A DNA stretch of 9,765 nt, from IMG/VR virus record IMGVR_UViG_2609459769_000004; one strand, written 5' to 3'. Source of the stretch: a virus. Its lineage: Duplodnaviria > Heunggongvirae > Uroviricota > Caudoviricetes. Within the stretch, counting starts at the first letter, position 1, and every line of letters starts with the position of its first letter. A program made the position numbers and the translations under genes. Below are positions 1 to 9,285 of the stretch, piece after piece. The notes beneath the pieces were generated by a model. That model was not told the DNA's origin. It made no database searches and saw only the letters and a program-made list of their open reading frames with translations.

Positions 1-60
1 CGGTCTTGAAAACCGGCGACCCGAAAGGGTTCCAGAGTTCGAATCTCTGCGCTTCCGCCA
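1..60 (+). tRNA. serT: 3' 60 nt of tRNA-Ser (anticodon UGA); 5' part lies outside the window
   Basis: Sequence CGGTCTTGAAAACCGG...GGTTCCAGAGTTCGAATCTCTGCGCTTCCGCCA has anticodon loop CU-UGA-AA, a long variable arm, T-arm GGTTCGAATC and a 3' CCA. It matches my recollection of E. coli tRNA-Ser(UGA). Confidence 0.9.
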
Positions 61-69
61 AACAATCAA

Positions 70-102
70 GGGGTTACCAAATGGTAGCCCCTTTCTTTTT
101 TT
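70..102 (+). terminator. Rho-independent terminator of the tRNA gene
   Basis: 9-bp stem GGGGTTACC / GGTAGCCCC (one G-U pair), AAAT loop, then T-tract TTTCTTTTTTT. Confidence 0.75.
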
Positions 103-107
103 GCTCT

Positions 108-137
108 TAGTATACACTTGGTATACTAATTGGTATA
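108..137. repeat. Short repeat cluster just downstream of the tRNA: 8-bp inverted repeat plus direct repeats
   Basis: TAGTATAC (108-115) and GTATACTA (121-128) are a perfect inverted repeat with a 5-nt spacer. TTGGTATA occurs at 118-125 and 130-137, and the complement ATACCA at 152-157. Confidence 0.5.
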
Positions 138-638
138 TTTAGCTCAACACATACCAGATAGATTTTTCTCTTTATGATTTATCGCTATACCGATGAATTA
201 TGAATAACCCCAATCCATGCATGACGTGTGGTGCCTGTTGTGCATTTTCCGCGTCTCTTTTTACTGGGCAGAAGCTGACGATGCTGGCGGAAAGGTTCCG
301 GTCAGTCTCACTGAGCAAATATCTCCTTTTCATCGCTGTATGCGCGGCACCAATCAGAAAAATCCCCGATGTGTCGCTCTTGCCGGCCCCCCCCCGGAGA
401 AAACGCATATTGCTCTGTTTACAAAAACCGTCCACATGCAGGGAATTCGCAATGTCCGGCGAAAATGGCATCGTAAATGAAGCATCTAATCGCGCACGGG
501 AAAAATATGGATTTCCAAAAATCTGAATATTCTCCGCCGTGCAAAAATGCGAACAACATCACTTCACTAATCAACCTGACATGGCATACTTAGCACGCTA
601 ACTATGATAACAAACTAATACCCTAAAACTCATGGTTC

Positions 639-668
639 CGGGACTGGTCGTGGTCCCGTTTTTTTTAT
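639..668 (+). terminator. Rho-independent terminator, plus-strand orientation
   Basis: Stem CGGGAC (639-644) / GTCCCG (653-658), 8-nt loop, then T8 (659-666). It sits immediately 3' of the stop of the convergent minus-strand gene at 669. Confidence 0.65.
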
Positions 669-1364
669 TCAGCCTGCAGGCCATCCAACAACGTAACTGC
701 GGATCGCCTTCAGCTCTGTCAGCGCCTCAACCTCTGCTTTCATCTGCAACTGCCGTGTATTAATCTCCACCCCCTTCGCAAACATCGCCTGCTCTGTCGC
801 ATCCGACAGGGCTATGATGTCTGCCGCCGTCACCGGCACCACATTATTATCCCCGTCGGTCCAGGCAAAACCTTCCGGAAGACGGTTATTCTCTGCCATC
901 AGGCGTGTCATGCTTATCCTGGACAACGTCTTCTTGCCGTAATCCCAGTTCCTTCCGTTGAATTCCATCATGTATTCCATATTCTCCTGCACATCACGCC
1001 AGATATTAATCTCTTCCCTTTTCGCCGCTTTTGCCGCTTCCAGTACTGCTTCCGTGGCGACAAAGGCACTCACACTTCCGTACGTTCCTGCTGTCAGCCC
1101 AGACCACAATGCTTTTCCGTGTTCTGTATTATCCGTTTCCGTTGCAGTATACGGCAGCCATACCTGTTCCCCTTTTTCATTCACCGCGTCTTCAAACTGC
1201 ACCTCACAGTTTATCCCGCCATATTCGTTGCTGGCTGCATTTCGTACTGCAAGAATCTCTTTTCCCTTATCCACCATGACCTCCTCTATGATATGCGCTG
1301 AAATAATCCTGCCTGTCTGATACCCGGAGATGATGTCCATAGCATCGGACCACATGCACGCCAC
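669..1364 (-). CDS. Phage tail-fibre assembly protein (Tfa / P2 gpG-like); start uncertain (ATG at 1277 has SD GAGGAGG, the longest ORF starts at 1364)
   Basis: C-terminal region ...[27 protein letters not shown]...[17 protein letters not shown] resembles Tfa/gpG C-termini (PENFTW-like motif, ending in a WP motif). It lies directly downstream of the tail-fibre fragment, as in stf-tfa pairs. Confidence 0.5.
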
Positions 1365-1771
1365 GTGCCCGGTAAACGGGTCTCCCCCACATTACCGGAA
1401 GCAACCAGGGGAGTACCATTCGAAAGGCAGCATGCAGACAGTGATGACCCGGCAACAGTTGAGCCAGGGGCACGGTCCCCCGAATAATGCGTCTGGTAAT
1501 ACGCCGCAAGAACAAAAGAACCGACACCAAACAGCCCGCTGTCAGGGCTTCCGGATGGTCCCCGTGGTCCTGCCGGGCCTGCAGCTCCCGTATCCCCTTT
1601 CGGTCCCCGTGGTCCTGCCGGGCCTGCAGCTCCCGCATCCCCTTTAGGTCCCTGAGGACCTGCCGGCCCTGCAGCTCCCGTATTCGCGCCAGTTCTCCAC
1701 CTTCTGACCGTGCATACCATCAGGGTAAAAATTTGCATCCTGTACGCCTGCCGCCGCCAGCTTCTGACCAA
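1286..1771 (-). pseudogene. 5'-truncated phage tail-fibre gene fragment with collagen-like repeats and a distal C-terminal domain
   Basis: Minus-strand frame encodes [43 protein letters not shown] followed by ...[20 protein letters not shown], a tail-fibre-tip-like GTWRxxG motif. There is no plausible N-terminus: the in-frame sequence upstream is interrupted by a stop at 1784 and overlaps the preceding ORF. Confidence 0.55.
1557..1690. repeat. 45-bp tandem repeat, about 3 copies, encoding collagen-like Gly-X-Y triplets on the minus strand
   Basis: GGTCCCCGTGGTCCTGCCGGGCCTGCAGCTCCCGTATCCCCTTTC at 1557-1601, repeated at 1602-1646 with 2 substitutions, and a diverged partial copy at 1647-1690. 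Confidence 0.85.
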
Positions 1772-2039
1772 TCGCCTTTATCATTACTGGCGCAAGATAT
1801 CCGGCCCTGAATATGCGCACGGATTTTCTGCCTTCCGGCACAATTTGCAGCTTATCCAGTTCGGATAACTGCTGCTCCCCAAGCCACACAGGAGGCTCAT
1901 TATCTCCGGCCATACGCGCGTCATGTTCCTGCCATTGTTTTGCGTGTGACCAGGCATCACTACCCGCAAAAATAATGACTTCTGTTTCTTTGTGTTTTAT
2001 GCCGCGTGACTGCTGTTTTACGTTCGGTGCCAGTTTCAT
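1644..2039 (-). CDS. Hypothetical protein, 131 aa; probably the 5' fragment of a larger gene that reads into the collagen-repeat DNA
   Basis: ATGA start/stop overlap with the upstream ORF and SD AGGGG 6 nt upstream. The last ~15 codons overlap the collagen repeat in another frame and look like read-through (…[10 protein letters not shown]). Confidence 0.4.
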
Positions 2040-2335
2040 TTTTTACCCCTGAATCCGTTAATCATGGTTTTCAGCTTCTGGATGTTTGCCCGTGCCCTGG
2101 CGTTGCTGGTGGGCACGTTATGCGGCGCGGTCTGTACCAGAGAAAAATCACGCCGGAACTGATAAACAGGCATCACGCAATCATATTCGTAACCTTCACG
2201 GCGGTAGGTTACGCGCCGTTCTTCCACGCCCTTAATCATTACCGTGCCGCCGTACTGGTCGCGGTAAATATCACCGCGCGTAAATTTAGGGTGAGTGTTG
2301 CCACTGGCAGTTAAGCCAGAATATTTAAGTTTCAT
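2036..2335 (-). CDS. Small hypothetical phage protein, 99 aa
   Basis: SD GGAGA 5 nt upstream of the ATG, and ATGA overlap with the next gene. Protein MKLKYSGLTASGNTHPKF...RRVTYRREGYEYDCVMPVYQF. Confidence 0.5.
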   Translation of the reverse strand: MKLKYSGLTASGNTHPKFTRGDIYRDQYGGTVMIKGVEERRVTYRREGYEYDCVMPVYQFRRDFSLVQTAPHNVPTSNARARANIQKLKTMINGFRGKK

Positions 2336-2340
2336 TATTT

Positions 2341-2574
2341 TTATTCTCCGGTGTGCTGTTCTTTATATCTGTCGTGCAATAGATCTATTTCTTGCAGTTC
2401 CATTATTACAGGCTCAAGAAGCGTTATTAATGCCGTGGCAATTCTTGATTTTTGTTTGTCGCATTCATTGTCGCCAAGTGTTTCAAGCCATATGCGCAAT
2501 ATTTCCTGCATGTTTTCACTGTGAGAAAGTGCAAGAAATGCGCGGTCTATTGTTTCGAGGTAAATATCACGCAT
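2341..2574 (-). CDS. Small hypothetical protein, 77 aa
   Basis: SD GAGGA 9 nt upstream; start overlaps the upstream gene's stop by 8 nt. Confidence 0.45.
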   Translation of the reverse strand: MRDIYLETIDRAFLALSHSENMQEILRIWLETLGDNECDKQKSRIATALITLLEPVIMELQEIDLLHDRYKEQHTGE

Positions 2575-2800
2575 GGCTTACATCCTCAGGAAATTTTCTT
2601 CTGTAACGCGCCTCTGCCACATATTCCGCATAATCGGCGGCGATATTCAGTACATCAAGTCCCGTTGATTTATATTCTTTCGTGGAAAGTAAGAAAAAAG
2701 CCGCTCTAATAAGTTCTGGCATTGACGAAAGCGCATCAGCCGCATCATCAGGAACGCCGGAAAATTCCTGTTTCAGGGAATTAAAACGATCATCACGCAT
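2567..2800 (-). CDS. Small hypothetical protein, 77 aa (MRDDRFNSLKQEF...); alternative start at 2812
   Basis: Start lies 2 nt downstream of a G8 tract (on the coding strand) and overlaps the upstream gene's stop, suggesting translational coupling. Confidence 0.4.
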   Translation of the reverse strand: MRDDRFNSLKQEFSGVPDDAADALSSMPELIRAAFFLLSTKEYKSTGLDVLNIAADYAEYVAEARYRRKFPEDVSHA

Positions 2801-3014
2801 AACCCCCCCCATTTTCACAATCAGCAACAAGAATATTTTTAGCGTCATTCAGTGACCGCGTTGCGGTGTATCGGATACATTCCAGGGCGAATAGTGTGTA
2901 TTCTTCCCTTTCTTCCTTTTGTGCAAGCTCTGCTGTGCATTCAATATCAATAAGCGCGTGCATCAGCGTAGTGAGTGCGGCGGCGGCTGCGTCCGGTGTG
3001 GTTTTATTGCACAT
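2793..3014 (-). CDS. Small hypothetical protein, 73 aa (MCNKTTPDAAAAALTT...); the longest ORF extends to 3068
   Basis: SD GGAGGGG immediately upstream of the ATG at 3014. The C-terminus ...ENGGGYA is encoded across the G8 homopolymer. Confidence 0.4.
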   Translation of the reverse strand: MCNKTTPDAAAAALTTLMHALIDIECTAELAQKEEREEYTLFALECIRYTATRSLNDAKNILVADCENGGGYA

Positions 3015-3234
3015 GTACCCCTCCGCATTTTTTTTCGTTAGAAATAAGCGTTCTTCTTTCCTGTTCATCGATCAGGAATACGCAGACCTCACCGCTAAGG
3101 CGTTTAAGTAAGCCGATGATTGCCCCTGATTCGCTGTCGGTCATCATGCCAGGGTAATCCTCTGCCAGTGCGCAAATAACTTCGATTTGGTGGGCGCGTT
3201 CTGCTGCCTGTTGTAGTGTGATTTCCTGGCTCAT
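3004..3234 (-). CDS. Small hypothetical protein, 76 aa (MSQEITLQQAAERAHQIEV...)
   Basis: ATG overlaps the stop of the Icd-like gene (ATGA), consistent with translational coupling. Confidence 0.45.
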   Translation of the reverse strand: MSQEITLQQAAERAHQIEVICALAEDYPGMMTDSESGAIIGLLKRLSGEVCVFLIDEQERRTLISNEKKCGGVHVQ

Positions 3235-3425
3235 AAGCCTACCCCCTGGCGAATACGGGCGGCGAATACAGCAACACAACCGGACGGGCAACGGCTACGC
3301 GCTTCGCGTTCCGTCCAGGCGGTTACGTGGATGATTTGAGATTCTCCGGCACTTAGTGCCAGAAAACGCCACACAAAGGCAGTTTGTGTGTGCGCCAGAC
3401 GTGGGGTATGCTGTGTTCCAGCCAT
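3231..3425 (-). CDS. Icd-like small protein (host cell division inhibitor Icd-like family), 64 aa; first gene of the leftward operon
   Basis: SD AGGAG 8 nt upstream of the ATG. Protein MAGTQHTPRLAHTQTAFVWRFLALSAGESQIIHVTAWTEREARSRCPSGCVAVFAARIRQGVGL carries the T-E-R-E-A-R ... F-A-A-R motif I associate with Icd-like proteins of P4-like prophages (from memory). Confidence 0.5.
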   Translation of the reverse strand: MAGTQHTPRLAHTQTAFVWRFLALSAGESQIIHVTAWTEREARSRCPSGCVAVFAARIRQGVGL

Positions 3426-3612
3426 AATCGTTACTCCTGTTAACGGTTTGGTTAGACGCCCCGCTACTGCCGCAAACAGTTCGGGGCGTTGTCGTTTACA
3501 TCCTCTTACTGAGGTGTGATTTAAATTAAATTCAACTGAATCACAGGTCAAGTGTTTTTTGTGATTCTTTTTTGTGTATACTGAATCACATCTTTTGTTT
3601 AGGAGAATGCAC
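3426..3612. promoter_or_regulatory. Divergent control region between the Icd-like operon (leftward) and a regulator gene (rightward), with repeated operator-like motifs and a leader hairpin
   Basis: Four copies of GAATCACA / TGTGAT(T/C) in alternating orientation at 3515-3522, 3537-3545, 3560-3567 and 3582-3590, about 22 bp centre to centre. Candidate -10 TATACT at 3577-3582 for the plus promoter; candidate -35 TTGACC (complement of 3546-3551) for the minus promoter. Hairpin ACGCCCCG / CGGGGCGT at 3456-3489. Confidence 0.55.
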
Positions 3613-3918
3613 ATGGCAAAAAACACTATCAACGACAAATCAAAACAGATTTCAATTCGTATCCCACATGATGCTTTTGATGGCATGGAATCCGTAAAAC
3701 TGGACGGCGAAAGCAACGCCGGATTCATAGTAACCGCCATGCGCGGTGAAATCGCCCGCCGCCAGGCAGAAGGAAGCGGAGAAAACCTCCTGATTTCTTC
3801 GCTCAATGCACTGGCGCAGGTGGAAAAACTCGGAATCAAAGCCGCCGAGGAGATCGGGCAGCTCGTCACTGTCGCACGTGAAGAACTCCAGCGCCGCAAG
3901 ACTAAAGAACCAGAGTAA
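3613..3918 (+). CDS. Putative DNA-binding regulator, 101 aa, possibly ribbon-helix-helix
   Basis: SD AGGAG 7 nt upstream. N-terminus KQISIRIPHDAFDGMESVKL... fits a beta-strand-then-helix RHH pattern. Divergent from the operator array. Confidence 0.4.
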   Translation: MAKNTINDKSKQISIRIPHDAFDGMESVKLDGESNAGFIVTAMRGEIARRQAEGSGENLLISSLNALAQVEKLGIKAAEEIGQLVTVAREELQRRKTKEPE

Positions 3919-3975
3919 TCACCATCAGCGCCGTGGTGTAAGGTATTACGGCGCATTGCTATGCAGGACAACACA

Positions 3976-4149
3976 ATGACCGATAAAGAATTGACCAAAA
4001 CATTATCACCGGCACGGAAAAGACGGCGCAGAAAGATAGAGCATGAATCAGAAAGATTCGCGCCATGTGCTTTTGCCCTTGAGCAATTCCTTAAAGAGTA
4101 CAGGGAAAAGCGCTCATTGCAGGTATGGCAACGAACTGAACCAGACTGA
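3976..4149 (+). CDS. Small basic hypothetical protein, 57 aa (alternative start at 3961)
   Basis: AGGA 8 nt upstream of the ATG at 3976. Protein MTDKELTKTLSPARKRRRRKIEHESERF... Followed by the terminator at 4229. Confidence 0.35.
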   Translation: MTDKELTKTLSPARKRRRRKIEHESERFAPCAFALEQFLKEYREKRSLQVWQRTEPD

Positions 4150-4228
4150 TTGCATTGCCCACCAGCCGCAAATGTGGCATTGTTGGCAATGCTCATGCGT
4201 TGGGGATAAGGTATAGCTTGTGTCGAAT

Positions 4229-4256
4229 GGCCACCGTGACAGGTGGCCTTTGTTTT
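4229..4256 (+). terminator. Rho-independent terminator ending the rightward regulator operon
   Basis: Stem GGCCACC / GGTGGCC with GTGACA loop, followed by TTTGTTTT. Confidence 0.7.
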
Positions 4257-4541
4257 GCCCGTTATTTGGCAATTGTGGCGCTTCTTCACACAGTTGATAT
4301 AATTCCCCTGCACTGATCCAATTTTTTCGCAGCAGGTTAATTGTTCGCAAGGGCGCTCTGGTAACGGGGCGCTTTTTGTTTTTACCCACCAGCACAATAA
4401 AAATCTTTATTTTCCATTTTTATAAAATTTCATGCTTTCCGGACGACTGGTCATATGTCATTTTTTAGCAGAAGATTTTGCCTTGCTGGTGAGTAGCTTC
4501 TCGGTTAACACGATGTACCGTATAATCAGCACCGCGTGTGG

Positions 4542-5120
4542 TTACTGAATACGCTCACCAAAGTAAAACTCAGGCTGATATTCACGTATCAGCCTTTTTT
4601 CTTCTTCCTCCAGTTCACGTTTTTTGCGCTTACATGCCTGTAGCGCCCTCCCCTTCTCGCTGGCACTTATCTGGTATTGCTCTTTGCGGCGGGAAAAATC
4701 CTGTAATGCACCCCACGGGATACCATAAGCCCCCGTTTTTCTGATACCCGGTATCACATTTCTGAATACCCAGTTACTGAAACGATGGGCGAATGTGCCT
4801 TGCGTCGTTGCTTTGCGGCTACGGGCTATTAGTTTGTAGAAACCTGACTCAGAGATAATGCTCATATTCTGATTTCCTCCTGGGGTGTAAGTTAAATTTA
4901 CTCCCTTTTCATCATCATCAAGCATCTGCAACGCCGTACGCGAATTGGTCAGTTCCAGCGCAGCGCAGACATCCTTTGCAACAAACCACGGATCGCCGTT
5001 CAGATACACCACGCGAACGTTCACACCATCAAAGCGCAGAACGACCAGATCACGAAAATCACAGAATTTTTTTACATGACGTGCGTCACCCTTGCCCGTC
5101 ACGGCAATATTTTTATTCAT
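4542..5120 (-). CDS. Bro-N domain protein (antirepressor-like), 192 aa
   Basis: N-terminal ...FDGVNVRVVYLNGDPWFVAKDVCAALELTNSRTALQMLDDDEKGV matches the Bro-N signature. Charged coiled-coil-like C-terminus KRKKRELEEEEKRLIREY. SD GAGGT 9 nt upstream. Confidence 0.7.
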   Translation of the reverse strand: MNKNIAVTGKGDARHVKKFCDFRDLVVLRFDGVNVRVVYLNGDPWFVAKDVCAALELTNSRTALQMLDDDEKGVNLTYTPGGNQNMSIISESGFYKLIARSRKATTQGTFAHRFSNWVFRNVIPGIRKTGAYGIPWGALQDFSRRKEQYQISASEKGRALQACKRKKRELEEEEKRLIREYQPEFYFGERIQ

Positions 5121-5138
5121 TTCTTTTTTACCTCACAT

Positions 5139-5165
5139 ACAAAAAACCCCGCATTGCACGCGGGG
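5139..5165 (-). terminator. Rho-independent terminator after the integrase/AlpA genes
   Basis: Stem CCCCGC / GCGGGG with 7-nt loop; on the minus strand it is followed by TTTTTTGT. Confidence 0.6.
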
Positions 5166-5179
5166 TATGAAAGATATTA

Positions 5180-5383
5180 TTAGTGGGGATTGGCCTGTTC
5201 TCGTTGTTTATCTAACCATGCTTCTACATCTCTACGGTGCCAGGTATGTCGCCGTCCAATTCTGAACGGCTGAGGAAAACCATTATTCTCATCTTTCCAG
5301 AAATTGATGAATGCACTCATTGCTCCATATCGCAAGATTTTCATTACGTCTTTAGTAAATAAAATATCTTCATTGGTATTCAT
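5180..5383 (-). CDS. alpA: AlpA-family DNA-binding protein (excisionase/regulator-like), 67 aa; the longest ORF starts at 5404
   Basis: Strong SD GAGGAGG 8 nt upstream of the ATG at 5383. Sequence ...ILFTKDVMKILRYGAMSAFINFWKDENNGFPQPFRIGRRHTWHRRDVEAWL aligns in pattern with E. coli AlpA (HTH, FP, W-L tail). Confidence 0.65.
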   Translation of the reverse strand: MNTNEDILFTKDVMKILRYGAMSAFINFWKDENNGFPQPFRIGRRHTWHRRDVEAWLDKQREQANPH

Positions 5384-5396
5384 TTGCTGAACCTCC

Positions 5397-6635
5397 TCAA
5401 CCATTTACTACTCTTAAACCTTTCATACCACCGGATCTATTAATTACCCCTTTTCTCGCATCATCAAAAAAATCACCGACCCATTGCATCATGATCTTAC
5501 GCTGTTCTAGATAAGTAGTTCTATTATAAATATCTCTTATTTTATCACCACTTTTATGCGCCAATGCAGCCTCGATTACATCGGGGTTAAATCCCTCCTC
5601 ATTTAAAAGCGTACTCCACATTGAACGAAAACCATGTAACGTTACAATCCCTTTGAACTTGCTGGCAGCAATTGGGGTCTTGATAGTATTCCTCCCCATA
5701 GGCGCATCTTTTGTTCTGGAGGAAAAAAACACATAACGCCCTCTTTTTATTTCCTGCATTGTTCTGAGGATACTAATAGCCTGTGATGACAAGGGAACAA
5801 CATGTTCACGATGGCATTTCATTTTATGCGCGGGGATAATCCACAAGCCAGAATCAAAATCAATCTCTGACCACTCTGCTTTAATCGCCTCACCTGGCCT
5901 GACCATTGTCAATATCTGGAATAAAAGTGCATTATGAGCTATTTGATAGGTATGAGGCACACTATCCCACCAGCTCAGAAATTCAGGCAATCTTTCAACA
6001 GGTAGTGCTGCTAATGATTTATTTTTCTTTCCTGTGAATGCAGTCTTTATCTTAAGTAATGGATTTGTTTTCAATGCTCCACAATTTACAGCATAATTCA
6101 TAATTTCATTTAATCTTGATATTAATTTTTTTTGCAACGCATTCTTATCGGATACGGCATCCAGAGCATTAATAGCTACTGGTGCTGTAATTTTTTCTAT
6201 ACTGTACTTACCAAAGAAAGGAACAAGATATTTGTATACTTCATATTCGATATTATACAGCGTAGGTTTCCGCAATTCAGATCCCTTTTTAAAAGCGAAC
6301 CATGCATTAGCAATAGCTTCAAATGTCTGTAGATTTTTTAGTGACATCTCAATTTTACGATTTTTCTTCTCCGTCACTGGATCAACTCCACGTGCAATCA
6401 TTCGCCGAAGTTCATCACGTACTTCCCGTGCTTCCGCGAGTGAGAATTCAGGAAAACGTCCTATCGTGTATGTCTGCCGTTTCTTCGTTATCGGATGGCT
6501 ATAACGGAAACGCCACACTTTCCCACCGGCTTTACTCACATTCAGCAATAAACCGAACCCATCATAAACGGCATAGTCCTTTTCACGTGGTTTCATCCCC
6601 TTAACTTCAGTCACGGTTAATGGCTTTACCGACAT
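5397..6635 (-). CDS. int: Tyrosine site-specific integrase, P4-type, 412 aa
   Basis: N-terminal arm-binding-like region (LLLNVSKAGGKVWRFRY), C-terminal catalytic region HGFRSMWSTLL...GDKIRDIYNRTTYLEQRKIMMQW with candidate catalytic Tyr. SD GAGGG upstream. Confidence 0.9.
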   Translation of the reverse strand: MSVKPLTVTEVKGMKPREKDYAVYDGFGLLLNVSKAGGKVWRFRYSHPITKKRQTYTIGRFPEFSLAEAREVRDELRRMIARGVDPVTEKKNRKIEMSLKNLQTFEAIANAWFAFKKGSELRKPTLYNIEYEVYKYLVPFFGKYSIEKITAPVAINALDAVSDKNALQKKLISRLNEIMNYAVNCGALKTNPLLKIKTAFTGKKNKSLAALPVERLPEFLSWWDSVPHTYQIAHNALLFQILTMVRPGEAIKAEWSEIDFDSGLWIIPAHKMKCHREHVVPLSSQAISILRTMQEIKRGRYVFFSSRTKDAPMGRNTIKTPIAASKFKGIVTLHGFRSMWSTLLNEEGFNPDVIEAALAHKSGDKIRDIYNRTTYLEQRKIMMQWVGDFFDDARKGVINRSGGMKGLRVVNG

Positions 6636-6796
6636 CTATCGCCCTCATTTTTTAGTCCGTCATGTAGTCCATTCAAGCCAATAACAAGCGATAAACTAAC
6701 TCATTATCAAGCAAAGAGAGGAAACTCATAAAATCACAACTCATTGAAAAGACTATGAAACGACACCAGAACATACAAACAGGTAAGAAATGTACC
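6636..6796. promoter_or_regulatory. AT-rich integrase-upstream region with three direct AACTCAT repeats; candidate int promoter / attachment-arm region and junction with the truncated terminase
   Basis: AACTCAT(T/A) at 6698-6705, 6723-6730 and 6738-6746. The region lies between the integrase start (6635) and the premature end of the terminase ORF (6797). Confidence 0.3.
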
Positions 6797-7804
6797 CTAC
6801 ATCCAGAATGACGCAATCCGGGAATTTCGTGGCGTTCCGGTGATACTGCCGTCCGCCACCGCCCGTTCACCTTCACGAAGCCAGATCCCTTTGTTATTCA
6901 GTTCGCGTTTCTGCTCAGGGGCAATCAGCCCGCGACAATGCGGACACATCAGACGGGCAGCCTGACCGGCAGCCACAAAATCCGGGTTATTCCGGTATCC
7001 GGTCATGTTATCCATCACCGGCTGAAAATATTCCCCGCAGTGCGGACACGGCCAGTACCACCGGCGGCGGTCTCCCCGGTTATACAGTGACAGGATCCCC
7101 GTTGTTGGCGGTGCCTCATGTGCGCCGCCACAGCGCCATTTGGTGTCAGTGATATCCCGCCCCGGCGAACTCTCGACCAGGGTCATCCCCGAGGACATAA
7201 AGGTGGTGGTACGCTTTGATGCCAGGGTGAAGGCATCCCCTTCCCCGTCCACGTTTTCAGGGAAACGGTCATAATCCGTCAGCGCCACACGACGGTAATC
7301 CGAAGAAGAAAATACAGTGATCGACGGCCAGCCAATCTTCAGGAAGGAGCCGTCAAGAAACATTTTATCGTGGACGTTGTTGTCATTACGGGAAGGACTG
7401 AGGCGCTTGCTGACCTCCGGACTGTGGCGAAACGTTCTGGAAAGACGCGTTCTGGAATGCTCACGCGCCTTCGTCTCAGTCATCTGCACCACCAGCATAT
7501 CCGCCGGATCACAGATGATGCCGTACACAATCCAGCCATCAATCAGCCCTTCGGTTTTCCCGGTTCGCGCAGGTCCCACAAACACCACCGCGTCATATTC
7601 ACGGGCTGATAATGTATTAATGGGGTCAATCATATAGGGCGTCAGCGATGACTCCCACGGACCGGAAGTATTGGCTCCCCGTGGTACCCGCATATAACGC
7701 CTGATGGCTTCCGCTACTGGTAACCGGCTGGGTGGGCGAAACAGCGAGGCCACTTCGCGCCAGATATCGGATGCGCGGCTATGGCTCTCGTTCACCTGAT
7801 TCAC
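6797..7804 (-). pseudogene. Terminase large subunit (lambda gpA-like), N-terminal 335 aa only; truncated
   Basis: SLFRPP...VAEAIRRY, Walker-A-like GPARTGKTE, CPHCGEY...CPHC and NKGIWLREG parallel lambda gpA. Lambda gpA is about 640 aa; here the ORF ends at ...ASFWM* with no continuation. Confidence 0.85.
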
Positions 7805-8277
7805 ATATCGGCCTCATCACAACAGTCAATGACTGCCTTTTCCAGTGTATCGCGGATCTCATCAACCACAATCTGTACTTCATTCAGTTGTGATGCGGTC
7901 CACCCCCTGTCCCTCTCCAGCCGGTCAGGCCAGGTTTCCAGTACCTGAACTATCGCTTTCACCACGACAGAAAAGGACCGCCTGACATCACTGACTGGCA
8001 CAAGCTGAACAGTTTCATGCTGAAATTTAAGACGCTCGCGCTCGGACTGATACCATGCCTTCCGATCATGTGGGTTCATCTCTTCATCTTCGGAAGCCGG
8101 TGGTTTTTCCAGCAACGAAATAATCAAATCCGTCAGGAGATACATTTTTTTCTTTTCATTACTGCCTGGTGCAAGAGGAACATCCGCCATTCTGGCGGCA
8201 ACAGTCTGCCGGTGCAGACCTGAAAGGGCTGCCAGTTGATTAATATTTAACTTCATATTTTTCAGCTCGCCGTCCAT
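7801..8277 (-). CDS. Terminase small subunit (lambda Nu1-like), 158 aa
   Basis: N-terminal HTH-like LNINQLAALSGLHRQTVAARMAD parallels the start of lambda Nu1. SD GGAGGG 7 nt upstream. Stop overlaps the TerL start (ATGA). Start is about 187 bp from the putative cosN, as in lambda. Confidence 0.85.
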   Translation of the reverse strand: MDGELKNMKLNINQLAALSGLHRQTVAARMADVPLAPGSNEKKKMYLLTDLIISLLEKPPASEDEEMNPHDRKAWYQSERERLKFQHETVQLVPVSDVRRSFSVVVKAIVQVLETWPDRLERDRGWTASQLNEVQIVVDEIRDTLEKAVIDCCDEADM

Positions 8278-8289
8278 TCACATCCCTCC

Positions 8290-8490
8290 ACATAAACCGC
8301 TGAACAAAAGTGGCTCTTTTTTTGTAAAGAAATGCCGCCATATAAAGATGTCGAACAAAAATCAACCACAATCATCATCTTTTTAATGCTAAATACATTA
8401 AAAACAACAAGTTACGCTAATGATGATGATGACGATAAAATCACAAAAATGCGCCTTTTTCCGCGCCGTCCGCCCCGTGTTCAGGCCCAC
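8290..8490 (-). other. Lambda-like cos site region (cosN about 8464-8475, cosB towards Nu1)
   Basis: Minus-strand GGGCGGACGGCG resembles the lambda cohesive end GGGCGGCGACCT. Downstream CGTCAT...AACTTGTTGTTTTTAATGTATTTA parallels lambda CGTCATAACTTAATGTTTTTATTTA (recalled from memory). No ORF of 60 aa or more on the minus strand in this interval. Confidence 0.5.
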
Positions 8491-8729
8491 CCCACCAGGA
8501 GGACCCGCAAAAACGATAATGGTTATCATTTTCAATGTAGTCCGGTTTCTTCCACCATCGCACCGGACAGGCGACTATGAGGGGACAACGCCGCGCTCCG
8601 TTAACGCGGTAAACCCCGGTGTGTATCGTTTTTGATTATCCCCGCACACTCGCGCAGAGGAGTCTCCCTGTCGGGCTGCGGTCTCTGTTAATGAGGGAAT
8701 ACAGCGACGATACGGCGCATCAACAAAAC

Positions 8730-9197
8730 TTATTTCAGGCACTGAGTACGGATATATTCCTGCGCCCCTTCCAGTTGCTTGTGCATCGTCATCAGCCGCT
8801 CTCTGAGGGTGAAATAATCCCGTTCAGCGGTGTCTGCCAGTCGGGGGCCGGTTGCATTATCCACGCGGGCGGTGCCGGTGGCTTCACGCACGGGACCTGG
8901 ACAGGTGGCGTTGATACGCAGGCGCTTACGACCAGCGGCAACGTCAGCGCGAAGAGTTTCATTTTCAGCTCTCGCATCGGCTAATTCCCTCGAGTATTTT
9001 GCATCGAGCGCAGCAACATCACGCTGACGCATCTGCATGTCAGTAATTGCCGCGTTCGCCAGCTTCAGTTCTCTGACATTTTTGTCGCGCTGGGCTTTGT
9101 AGGTAATGGCGTTATCACGGTAATGATTCAGCCCCAGACTAAGCGCACCACAGGCCACCAGCATGACAATAATCACCACACACAGAACACGGTTCAT
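8730..9197 (-). CDS. Rz: Rz i-spanin, 155 aa
   Basis: [67 protein letters not shown]... is near-identical in pattern to lambda Rz, with an N-terminal TM segment. Confidence 0.9.
8792..8977 (-). CDS. Rz1: Rz1 o-spanin lipoprotein, 61 aa, embedded in the +1 frame of Rz
   Basis: [61 protein letters not shown] has a lipobox LVVSAC and proline-rich core matching lambda Rz1. Confidence 0.85.
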
Positions 9198-9198
9198 A

Positions 9199-9285
9199 TC
9201 ACCACCAACGGATTGCCCAGACCAGAACAGCAATGGCCACAATACGAATGGCAAATGCCATTGCCCGAATAAGTTCAGCACTCAT
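9199..9285 (-). CDS. Candidate 28-aa hydrophobic peptide immediately upstream of Rz
   Basis: ATG at 9285; [28 protein letters not shown]; stop TGA is 1 nt before the Rz ATG. No recognisable SD, so this may not be expressed. Confidence 0.2.

Follow-up and report, generated by a model that had tools for sequence, protein, structure and literature searches.

A probable intact cos site beside a DUF1441-type small terminase gene in a lambdoid prophage remnant with a satellite-interrupted terL

Gene content of the locus

The window (the whole 9,765-nucleotide stretch analyzed here, IMG/VR record IMGVR_UViG_2609459769_000004) carries the end of a lysis cassette, a small terminase gene (terS), a fragment of a large terminase gene (terL), the remnant of an integrase-bearing satellite, a tail-fiber fragment, and part of a tRNA-Ser(UGA) gene (Table 1). 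All genes relevant here lie on the minus strand, and the 452-bp spacer between Rz and terS holds a cos-like site in the canonical location, between Rz/Rz1 and terS-terL. No complete E. coli genome contained the whole window; exact matches (100% identity) were found only in two draft assemblies, contigs L017 and L018.

The small terminase gene is intact and its product is 99.4% identical to TerS of Stx2 phages. The preliminary description had called it Nu1-like, which holds for its position but not for its family. In Pfam the protein matched DUF1441 only and not Phage_Nu1, BLASTP against lambda Nu1 gave no alignment at an E value of ≤100, and a PDB sequence search returned no relative. A single-sequence AlphaFold2 model (pLDDT 58) was too poor to use. 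Judging from synteny and family labels (phrog_141), the protein probably acts as TerS.

The terL reading frame overlaps terS by 4 nt, and PHROGs labels its product a terminase large subunit. Intact homologues are 2124 nt long and have the gpA architecture of about 707 amino acids, with an ATPase domain followed by a C-terminal nuclease; the nuclease half is absent from both the window and L017. With terL reduced to its ATPase domain, the locus cannot cut its own cos, in agreement with the earlier statement that the large terminase is truncated and that the region cannot package itself.

TABLE 1 Features of the window and their coordinates (plus-signed positions count from the first G of the cohesive-end 12-mer)
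Feature	Position	Strand	Remarks
tRNA-Ser(UGA), 3' part	1-60	plus	Complete in L017
Spacer, 600 bp			Between the tail-fiber/DUF4376 gene and tRNA-Ser
Collagen-like tail-fiber fragment and DUF4376 gene	669..1771	minus	Joined to the satellite stub by deletion
Satellite remnant	1680..6794	minus	Helper-embedded PICI type
Satellite primase stub	2039..1680	minus	N-terminal 120 aa
Satellite DUF4222	2335..2036	minus
Satellite Bro-N	5120..4542	minus
Satellite AlpA-like regulator	5404..5180	minus
Satellite integrase	6635..5397	minus	P4-type
attL core of embedded satellite, TGGATGTAGGG	6795..6805	minus	TAG at 6799..6797 is the terL stop codon
terL fragment, 335 aa	6797..7804	minus	GpA_ATPase domain positions 2-247 of 247; nuclease domain missing
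terS, DUF1441 type, 158 aa	7801..8277	minus	Intact; Pfam PF07278, E = 1e-48; phrog_141 "terminase small subunit," E = 2e-64
R1-like element, TCGACATC	8347..8354 (+122 to +129)	minus	Oriented as the R3-like element; inside conserved block TTTTTGTTCGACATC
R2-like element, TCATCATC	8372..8379 (+97 to +104)	plus	Inverted relative to the R3-like element
IHF-like site, AAACAACAAGTTA	8402..8414	plus	One mismatch to WATCAANNNNTTR; between the R3-like and R2-like elements
R3-like element, TCATCATC reiterated	8419..8435 (+41 to +57)	minus	Same position as lambda R3
Right flank between cosN and cosB, CGGAAAAAGGCGCATTTTTGTGATTTTA	8436..8463	minus	Nearly invariant in the footprint of 55 unique sequences
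cosN core, CG/GGGCGGACGGCG/CG	8462..8477	minus	Putative 12-nt 5' cohesive end 8475..8464; conserved CG dinucleotide on each side
cosQ heptamer, GGGTCCT	8500..8506	minus	Packaging-termination element; identical to lambda cosQ; invariant in 55 unique related cos regions
Rz spanin gene	8730..9281	minus	Pfam Phage_lysis, E = 3.5e-51; end of the lysis cassette, upstream of cos
Rz1, embedded in Rz	8977..8792	minus	Rz1 called in L014

Several further features were seen on the lysis side. The 220-bp stretch from Rz to cosQ is highly conserved, and a minus-strand open reading frame (ORF) of 55 amino acids at 8575-8742 overlaps the Rz stop and matches phrog_6954 ("Rz-like spanin," E = 1.4e-16). This ORF is unannotated in VT1-Sakai and in the RefSeq records compared, and the region could be either a genuine gene or conserved DNA close to cos; in lambda, an I2 site is found upstream of cosN. 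Two plus-strand ORFs over cos (8332..8580 and 8420..8635) were rejected as genes, having no family match and carrying 1-nt indels in close relatives. An Rfam scan of the whole window at an E value of ≤1 returned two subthreshold chance matches, neither near cos, and a promoter and terminator scan of 8150-8850 gave nothing exceeding shuffled expectation. Upstream of the window's right end (L017 1-2400 and L018 1-2260), no class II holin, DUF826, or full DUF1327 homologue lies between the DUF6645 esterase and lysozyme genes; an opposite-strand 104-aa ORF stands in place of the holin, DUF826, and DUF1327 genes of related prophages. Since these homologues are missing, the lysis cassette of the remnant may be incomplete as well.

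Identity of the cos core

The preliminary description had reported a cosN-like 12-mer on the minus strand at 8464-8475, and the letters bear this out: the plus strand there reads cgccgtccgccc, which is GGGCGGACGGCG at 8475..8464 on the minus strand. CG dinucleotides flank it, and the cosQ heptamer lies upstream of cosN on the minus strand, just beyond the range then described (8290-8490). In lambda, GGGTCCT is followed by 23 nt and then by GGGCGGCGACCT at the genome start; in the window the spacer from cosQ to the cohesive end is 24 nt. The composite GGGTCCT-N23-GGGGCGG matched the window once with no mismatches, against an expectation of about 0.07 even when two mismatches were allowed. The junction ACG/GGGCGG is common to the window and lambda, and a CG also follows the window 12-mer. 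The start codon of terS (ATG, 8277) is 186 nt from the 12-mer and at +199 from its first G, compared with +191 for lambda Nu1, so the earlier figure of about 187 bp from cos to the small terminase start, as in lambda, was close.

We compared 80 related IMG/VR viral loci whose TerS is 73 to 100% identical and found the cosQ-cosN layout again in 75. The cohesive end's left half, GGGCGG, is the same as in lambda and invariant in all 75 loci with a detected cos core, although the detection pattern itself demanded GGGCGG; the right half varies among related loci. In a footprint of 55 unique sequences, 52 to 99% identical to the window, cosQ, CGGGGCGG, and the flank GCGCGGAAAAAGGCGCATTTTT form the best-conserved part of the Rz-terS spacer. 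The right flank CGGAAAAAGGCGCATTTTTGTGATTTTA also occurs in satellite cos copies and in the distant phages cdtI, mEp460, and LLS. Flanking CG dinucleotides together with a conserved cosQ and left half and a variable right half are the pattern described by Feiss for lambda-like phages (PMC4669245), and we counted the match to it toward cos identity.

Two phage records support the same identification. The distant phages LLS and cdtI also have a DUF1441 TerS, and their records open at GGGCGG: LLS with GGGCGGCGCGCT, annotated as a 12-nt 5' end, and cdtI with GGGCGGGAGCGT. Both then run into the same CGCGGxAAAxGGC...TTTTT flank. The ends of LLS and mEp213 were inferred by their authors and not measured (PMC12315714), and among viral contigs and phage records of the close subfamily we found none opening exactly at the cohesive end, which would be physical evidence of cutting. 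The cut positions and the 12-nt overhang length given here are therefore those predicted from homology; the length is the less certain, as the CG-to-CG stretch is 12 nt here and 13 nt in VT1-Sakai-type alleles.

Taken together, we believe that this is very probably a genuine, sequence-intact cos of a long-tailed lambdoid, Stx-phage-like prophage with a DUF1441-type TerS and a gpA-type TerL. Seen directly are the sequence, its homology, its identity with copies beside intact packaging modules, and the insertion and deletion described below; competence for packaging is predicted, as are the cleavage positions and TerS binding.

Intactness and natural variation

A 61-bp query centered on the cohesive end was 100% identical in 23 complete E. 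coli genomes, and about 470 further complete genomes had one mismatch. Members of the cos family were found in 527 of the 5426 complete E. coli genomes, and a single genome can hold as many as 5 copies. In E. coli O18 the identical core adjoins an intact terS, a terL of 2124 nt, and genes for portal, capsid-protease fusion, and tail proteins, and the window and O18 are identical from cosQ through cosN and the R3-like element. The same core beside a complete packaging module argues that the window site has not decayed, and the earlier impression of an apparently intact cos was sound. Nothing about this cos is new in kind, with identical copies already in public genomes.

The cohesive-end alleles of the 75 IMG/VR loci fall into a few types. 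The commonest, GGGCGGGCGGCG, was read in 45 loci; GGGCGGGCGGGCG (VT1-Sakai and O157 Z1835) and GGGCGGGTCGGCG, each with 13 nt between the CG flanks, were read in 10 loci apiece, the window's allele GGGCGGACGGCG in 7, and other alleles in 3. The window allele differs from the commonest by a single change, A for G at position 7. That this A, or changes in cosB, has inactivated the site is an explanation we regard as very improbable. It would suit an otherwise heavily degraded prophage and the prevalence of G at position 7, both among the IMG/VR loci (45 of 75 against 7 with A) and among complete genomes (about 470 against 23). However, the A allele also adjoins complete packaging and head modules, and position 7 lies in the naturally variable right half, where lambda terminase tolerates changes (PMC4669245). 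The three R-like elements, cosQ, and the flanks are all identical to those of intact relatives. As the window allele also occurs with an uninterrupted terL att site in three IMG/VR loci (L023, L029, and L034), this A is a natural polymorphism in the tolerated half and not decay.

Between the CG dinucleotides (window 8462-8477; compared in L008, L010, and L035-L063), most alleles have 12 nt; one locus has 14 nt, and L050, a satellite-occupied locus, has 9 nt. Either this phage group is not uniform in overhang length or some of these sites are impaired.

A cosB-like array of three elements

The preliminary description had also proposed a cosB-like sequence downstream of cosN. An array of R3-like, inverted R2-like, and R1-like elements is indeed present; lambda R sites are not, as a search of the cos region and cosB for lambda-type R sites (CGTTTCCNTTCT) found none. 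The lambda layout is R3-I1-R2-R1, with R3 at bp 50-65 (PMC9026076). Across relatives of the window, three 8-mers occupy conserved positions at about +46, +96 (inverted), and +121, a count made with an R-element consensus derived from the same sequences. The arms 8371-8382 and 8419-8430 form an inverted repeat, ATCATCATCTTT and AATGATGATGAT, that is 92% complementary.

In a second TerS group (75 to 77% identical, N-terminus MDRELKNLHL...), the positions of the elements are unchanged, but their sequences are CCATCACC, TCGACACT, and TCATCACT. All three switch together between the two TerS sequence groups, from ..CATC to ..CAC(C/T). Based on this concerted change and on a forward/inverted/forward order with an AT-rich spacer, like R3-I1-R2-R1 of lambda, we took the three elements to be putative TerS binding sites. 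Within the spacer lies the IHF-like AAACAACAAGTTA; IHF-consensus matches in the window are no more frequent than chance, and only the placement of this one is weakly suggestive.

As in lambda, the cosQ heptamer is GGGTCCT, CG dinucleotides flank both predicted nicks, the TerL belongs to the gpA family, and cos is placed between the lysis genes and terS. The order of the cosB-like elements is that of R3, bend, inverted R2, and R1, with the first element at about +45 here and R3 at +50 to +65 in lambda. The differences are in the R elements, which are of the TCATCATC type here and of the CGTTTCC type in lambda; in the spacing, with 24 nt between cosQ and cosN instead of 23 and with alleles related to the window's that have 13 nt between the CG flanks; and in the DUF1441 TerS, for which no similarity to Nu1 could be detected. 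Feiss's "lambda-like" cos group comprises lambda, 21, phi80, N15, Monarch, and Gifsy-1. For the window site the term fits cosQ, cosN, and the layout but not the specificity.

Comparison with the cos sites of E. coli PICIs such as EcCICFT073 (Fillol-Salom 2018/2019; Murialdo and Feiss 2022, PMC9026076) shows a cosQ and a cosN that almost match the helper's at helper-like spacing. The PICI sites lack the helper R sequences, and Rpp redirects TerS (PMC9026076). In contrast, the window site is a helper's own cos, with a full R-like array beside its own terS.

A satellite in terL and a later deletion

Homology to the intact terL of VT1-Sakai ends at window position 6795; in RM10466, terL homology resumes 10.3 kb further on, with a 12-bp overlap. 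A 12-bp block, TTGGATG(G/T)AGGG, stands at both junctions in RM10466 and O157 Z1835. The satellite junctions read ...TTGGATGTAGGGtacattt and ...cttcTTGGATGGAGGGGcc, and the empty site in VT1-Sakai is TTGGATGGAGGGGCC, in frame (F-W-M-E-G). The T in attL yields the TAG that ends the window's 335-aa terL product. These junctions indicate that terL was truncated by a PICI-type satellite inserted at codon 336. The integrase module mentioned in the preliminary description is not the prophage's own; it belongs to this degenerate element.

Intact relatives of the satellite carry int, AlpA-like, Bro-N, Icd-like, and DUF4222 genes, a 605-aa primase gene, SSB, a ClpP/capsid fusion gene, and cos sites of their own. 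The element occupies window 1680-6805 and L001 8675-19020 and is also present in L010 and L013-L016. We found the terL-satellite junction in 65 of the 5426 complete E. coli genomes, among them O157:H7, O145, O121, and O45 strains, and in 13 of about 68 readable IMG/VR loci.

This is the arrangement of the helper-embedded PICIs (HE-PICIs) described in 2023 by Tommasini, Mageeney, and Williams (PMC10111431). The intact relatives share with HE-PICIs a flanking repeat around a site that is in frame when empty (the window keeps attL only), the backbone of int, AlpA, Bro-N zone, Icd-like, DUF4222, primase, SSB, and capsid genes, and a copy of a helper-type cos carried by the satellite itself. Their primase shares 87% identity with the primase of HE-PICI 11capE. 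The differences are in the integrase clade, the arm motif, the target gene, and the state of the window element, a dead stub. The satellite integrase is 25% identical to that of 11capE, and the diagnostic doubled HE-PICI arm motif TGTATTGC is absent from both satellite arms. Among the 14 published HE-PICI sites, those in the A gene are all in Terminase_1-type TerL (PMC10111431). None of the 14 is codon 336 of a GpA-type terL, and neither "GpA" nor the core sequence appears in the text or supplements of that paper. A different integrase, a missing arm motif, and an unpublished target suggest that prophage late genes are targeted by a second integrase lineage as well.

In L017 and L018, about 120 homologous residues of the satellite primase are left, fused to the collagen-like tail-fiber fragment, beyond which lie the DUF4376 gene, tRNA-Ser(UGA), and hyaA/hyaB. 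A later deletion removed the primase C terminus, the capsid gene, and the cos sites of the satellite, together with the prophage head and tail genes. What is left is a stub that has neither attR nor a complete primase nor a cos of its own, and the helper cos lies 1.7 kb outside attL. Lacking these parts, the stub can neither excise nor replicate.

Two observations concern the far end. The tail-fiber fragment has an internal 45-bp tandem duplication at window 1557-1683 (82-nt self-matches, 91% identity), typical of Gly-X-Y repeats, and the deletion endpoint joining the tail fiber to the primase stub, at about 1680, falls at its edge. Between the tRNA and the tail-fiber assembly-like gene (window 1-668; L017 12100-13219), a plus-strand ORF of 108 amino acids (200..526) with an N-terminal cysteine-cluster motif looks like prophage-end cargo.

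Packaging from the retained cos

Our working model draws on homology with lambda. TerS would bind the R3-like element (+41 to +57), the inverted R2-like element (+97), and the R1-like element (+122), the first two being separated by an AT-rich, bendable spacer. TerL would then be placed to nick at the two CG-flanked positions, leaving a 5' overhang starting with GGGCGG, and DNA would be translocated toward terS, downward in window coordinates. The cosQ element would serve termination once a filled head reached the site. As for the history of the locus, a PICI-type satellite integrated at codon 336 of terL, followed later by a deletion from the satellite primase gene to the prophage tail-fiber gene. 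The remainder would serve a cognate terminase, were one supplied in trans, as a substrate competent for initiation.

The preliminary description had supposed that a superinfecting lambdoid helper could package the locus in trans. This has to be narrowed. With no lambda R sites and no Nu1-like TerS, lambda, phi80, and HK97 are not expected to initiate here, and a helper with the same TerS/cosB type should be needed.

In-trans rescue of terminase-defective prophages via a shared cos was already established in 2009 for O157 Sakai, where Sp4, whose nu1 is disrupted, is packaged via an identical cos, and the terminase responsible is most likely that of Sp14 (Asadulghani et al., PMC2669165). Like the window prophage, Sp4 is a lambdoid prophage with no working terminase, and its cos is identical to one in a co-resident prophage. 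In contrast, Sp4 still excises, is amplified, and has a full-length genome, while the window holds a short remnant with one cos.

We consider it unlikely that the retained cos mobilizes the locus at a biologically meaningful rate, with a superinfecting or co-resident helper packaging the adjacent DNA, including the integrase module. The Sp4 case places trans-packaging in the same kind of prophage pool, cognate helpers should be common given the frequency of the cos family (527 of 5426 genomes), cos and terS are both intact, and packaging would run into the satellite remnant and then into tRNA-Ser and hya. However, passive prophages of lambda use an upstream cos for initiation and a downstream cos for termination (PMC4669245), and there is a single cos in 13 kb of the source-like contig, which ends about 4.3 kb upstream of cos and continues downstream for 8.4 kb through the remnant, tRNA-Ser, and hyaAB. 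With one cos alone, efficient cos-to-cos packaging, and with it efficient transducing particles, would not be expected unless the remnant can still excise and form concatemers or another co-oriented cos lies one genome length away, and the sequence at hand shows neither. Also against mobilization are the missing attR, complete primase, and own cos of the satellite remnant, and helpers of the lambda, phi80, and HK97 types lack a matching TerS and cosB. A present role in mobilizing neighboring DNA is therefore possible and probably marginal. Given that no partner cos is nearby, the most fitting reading of the site is a recent relic, not a maintained function.

The window cos is an ordinary feature, a further instance of a cos allele common in E. 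coli prophages. The comparison built around it gives a first sequence-level cos map for lambdoid phages with a DUF1441 TerS and a gpA TerL, several Stx phages included. The map covers cosQ, cosN, and the three covarying R-like elements and predicts which helpers package which prophages. The locus also shows that, in such prophages, a "truncated terminase plus integrase" can mark where a satellite inserted and is not to be taken for the prophage's own integration module.

Co-oriented cos sites in intact satellites

In intact satellites, two cos-like sites about 2.5 kb apart flank the ClpP/capsid fusion gene, both in the orientation of the helper cos (minus strand of L001, 9512-9548 and 12050-12086; L013, 17862 and 20398). 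Their distances to that cos are 8.6 and 11.2 kb in RM10466 and 8.6 and 11.1 kb in L013. One could imagine that the embedded satellite uses the helper cos in cis, packaging from it to a co-oriented satellite cos with no excision, and that the window shows this arrangement broken. We give this very little credence. The spacing and orientation would allow it, and among published HE-PICIs 97% lie in genes A, B, C, and E, a short way downstream of cos; yet excision of the published HE-PICI follows composite replication (PMC10111431). In the window, moreover, the satellite cos sites have been deleted. For lambda to cut cos at termination, the head has to be nearly full, and a cos met after 9 to 11 kb should accordingly be skipped in a normal capsid. 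On a broader version of the idea, satellite placement in terL, 1.7 kb downstream of the helper cos and co-oriented with it, would be a packaging strategy (8.6- to 11.2-kb cos-to-cos units and exit without excision) and not only a cis-regulatory trick, and in degraded copies the orphan helper cos would drive one-directional transfer of the neighboring chromosome (tRNA-Ser and hya). This we regard as speculative and very improbable. The reading of the window cos as a recent relic is the one we prefer.

The satellite cos copies vary in type. In the RM10466 satellite, one cos has R-like elements of the helper's TerS group and the other has those of the second TerS group; with two cosB types, this satellite may be packageable by two terminase specificities. 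The satellite cos alleles of L013-L016, GGGCGGGAGCGT and GGGCGGGAGCGG, differ from that of the resident prophage, and a DUF1441 terS gene follows the second one.
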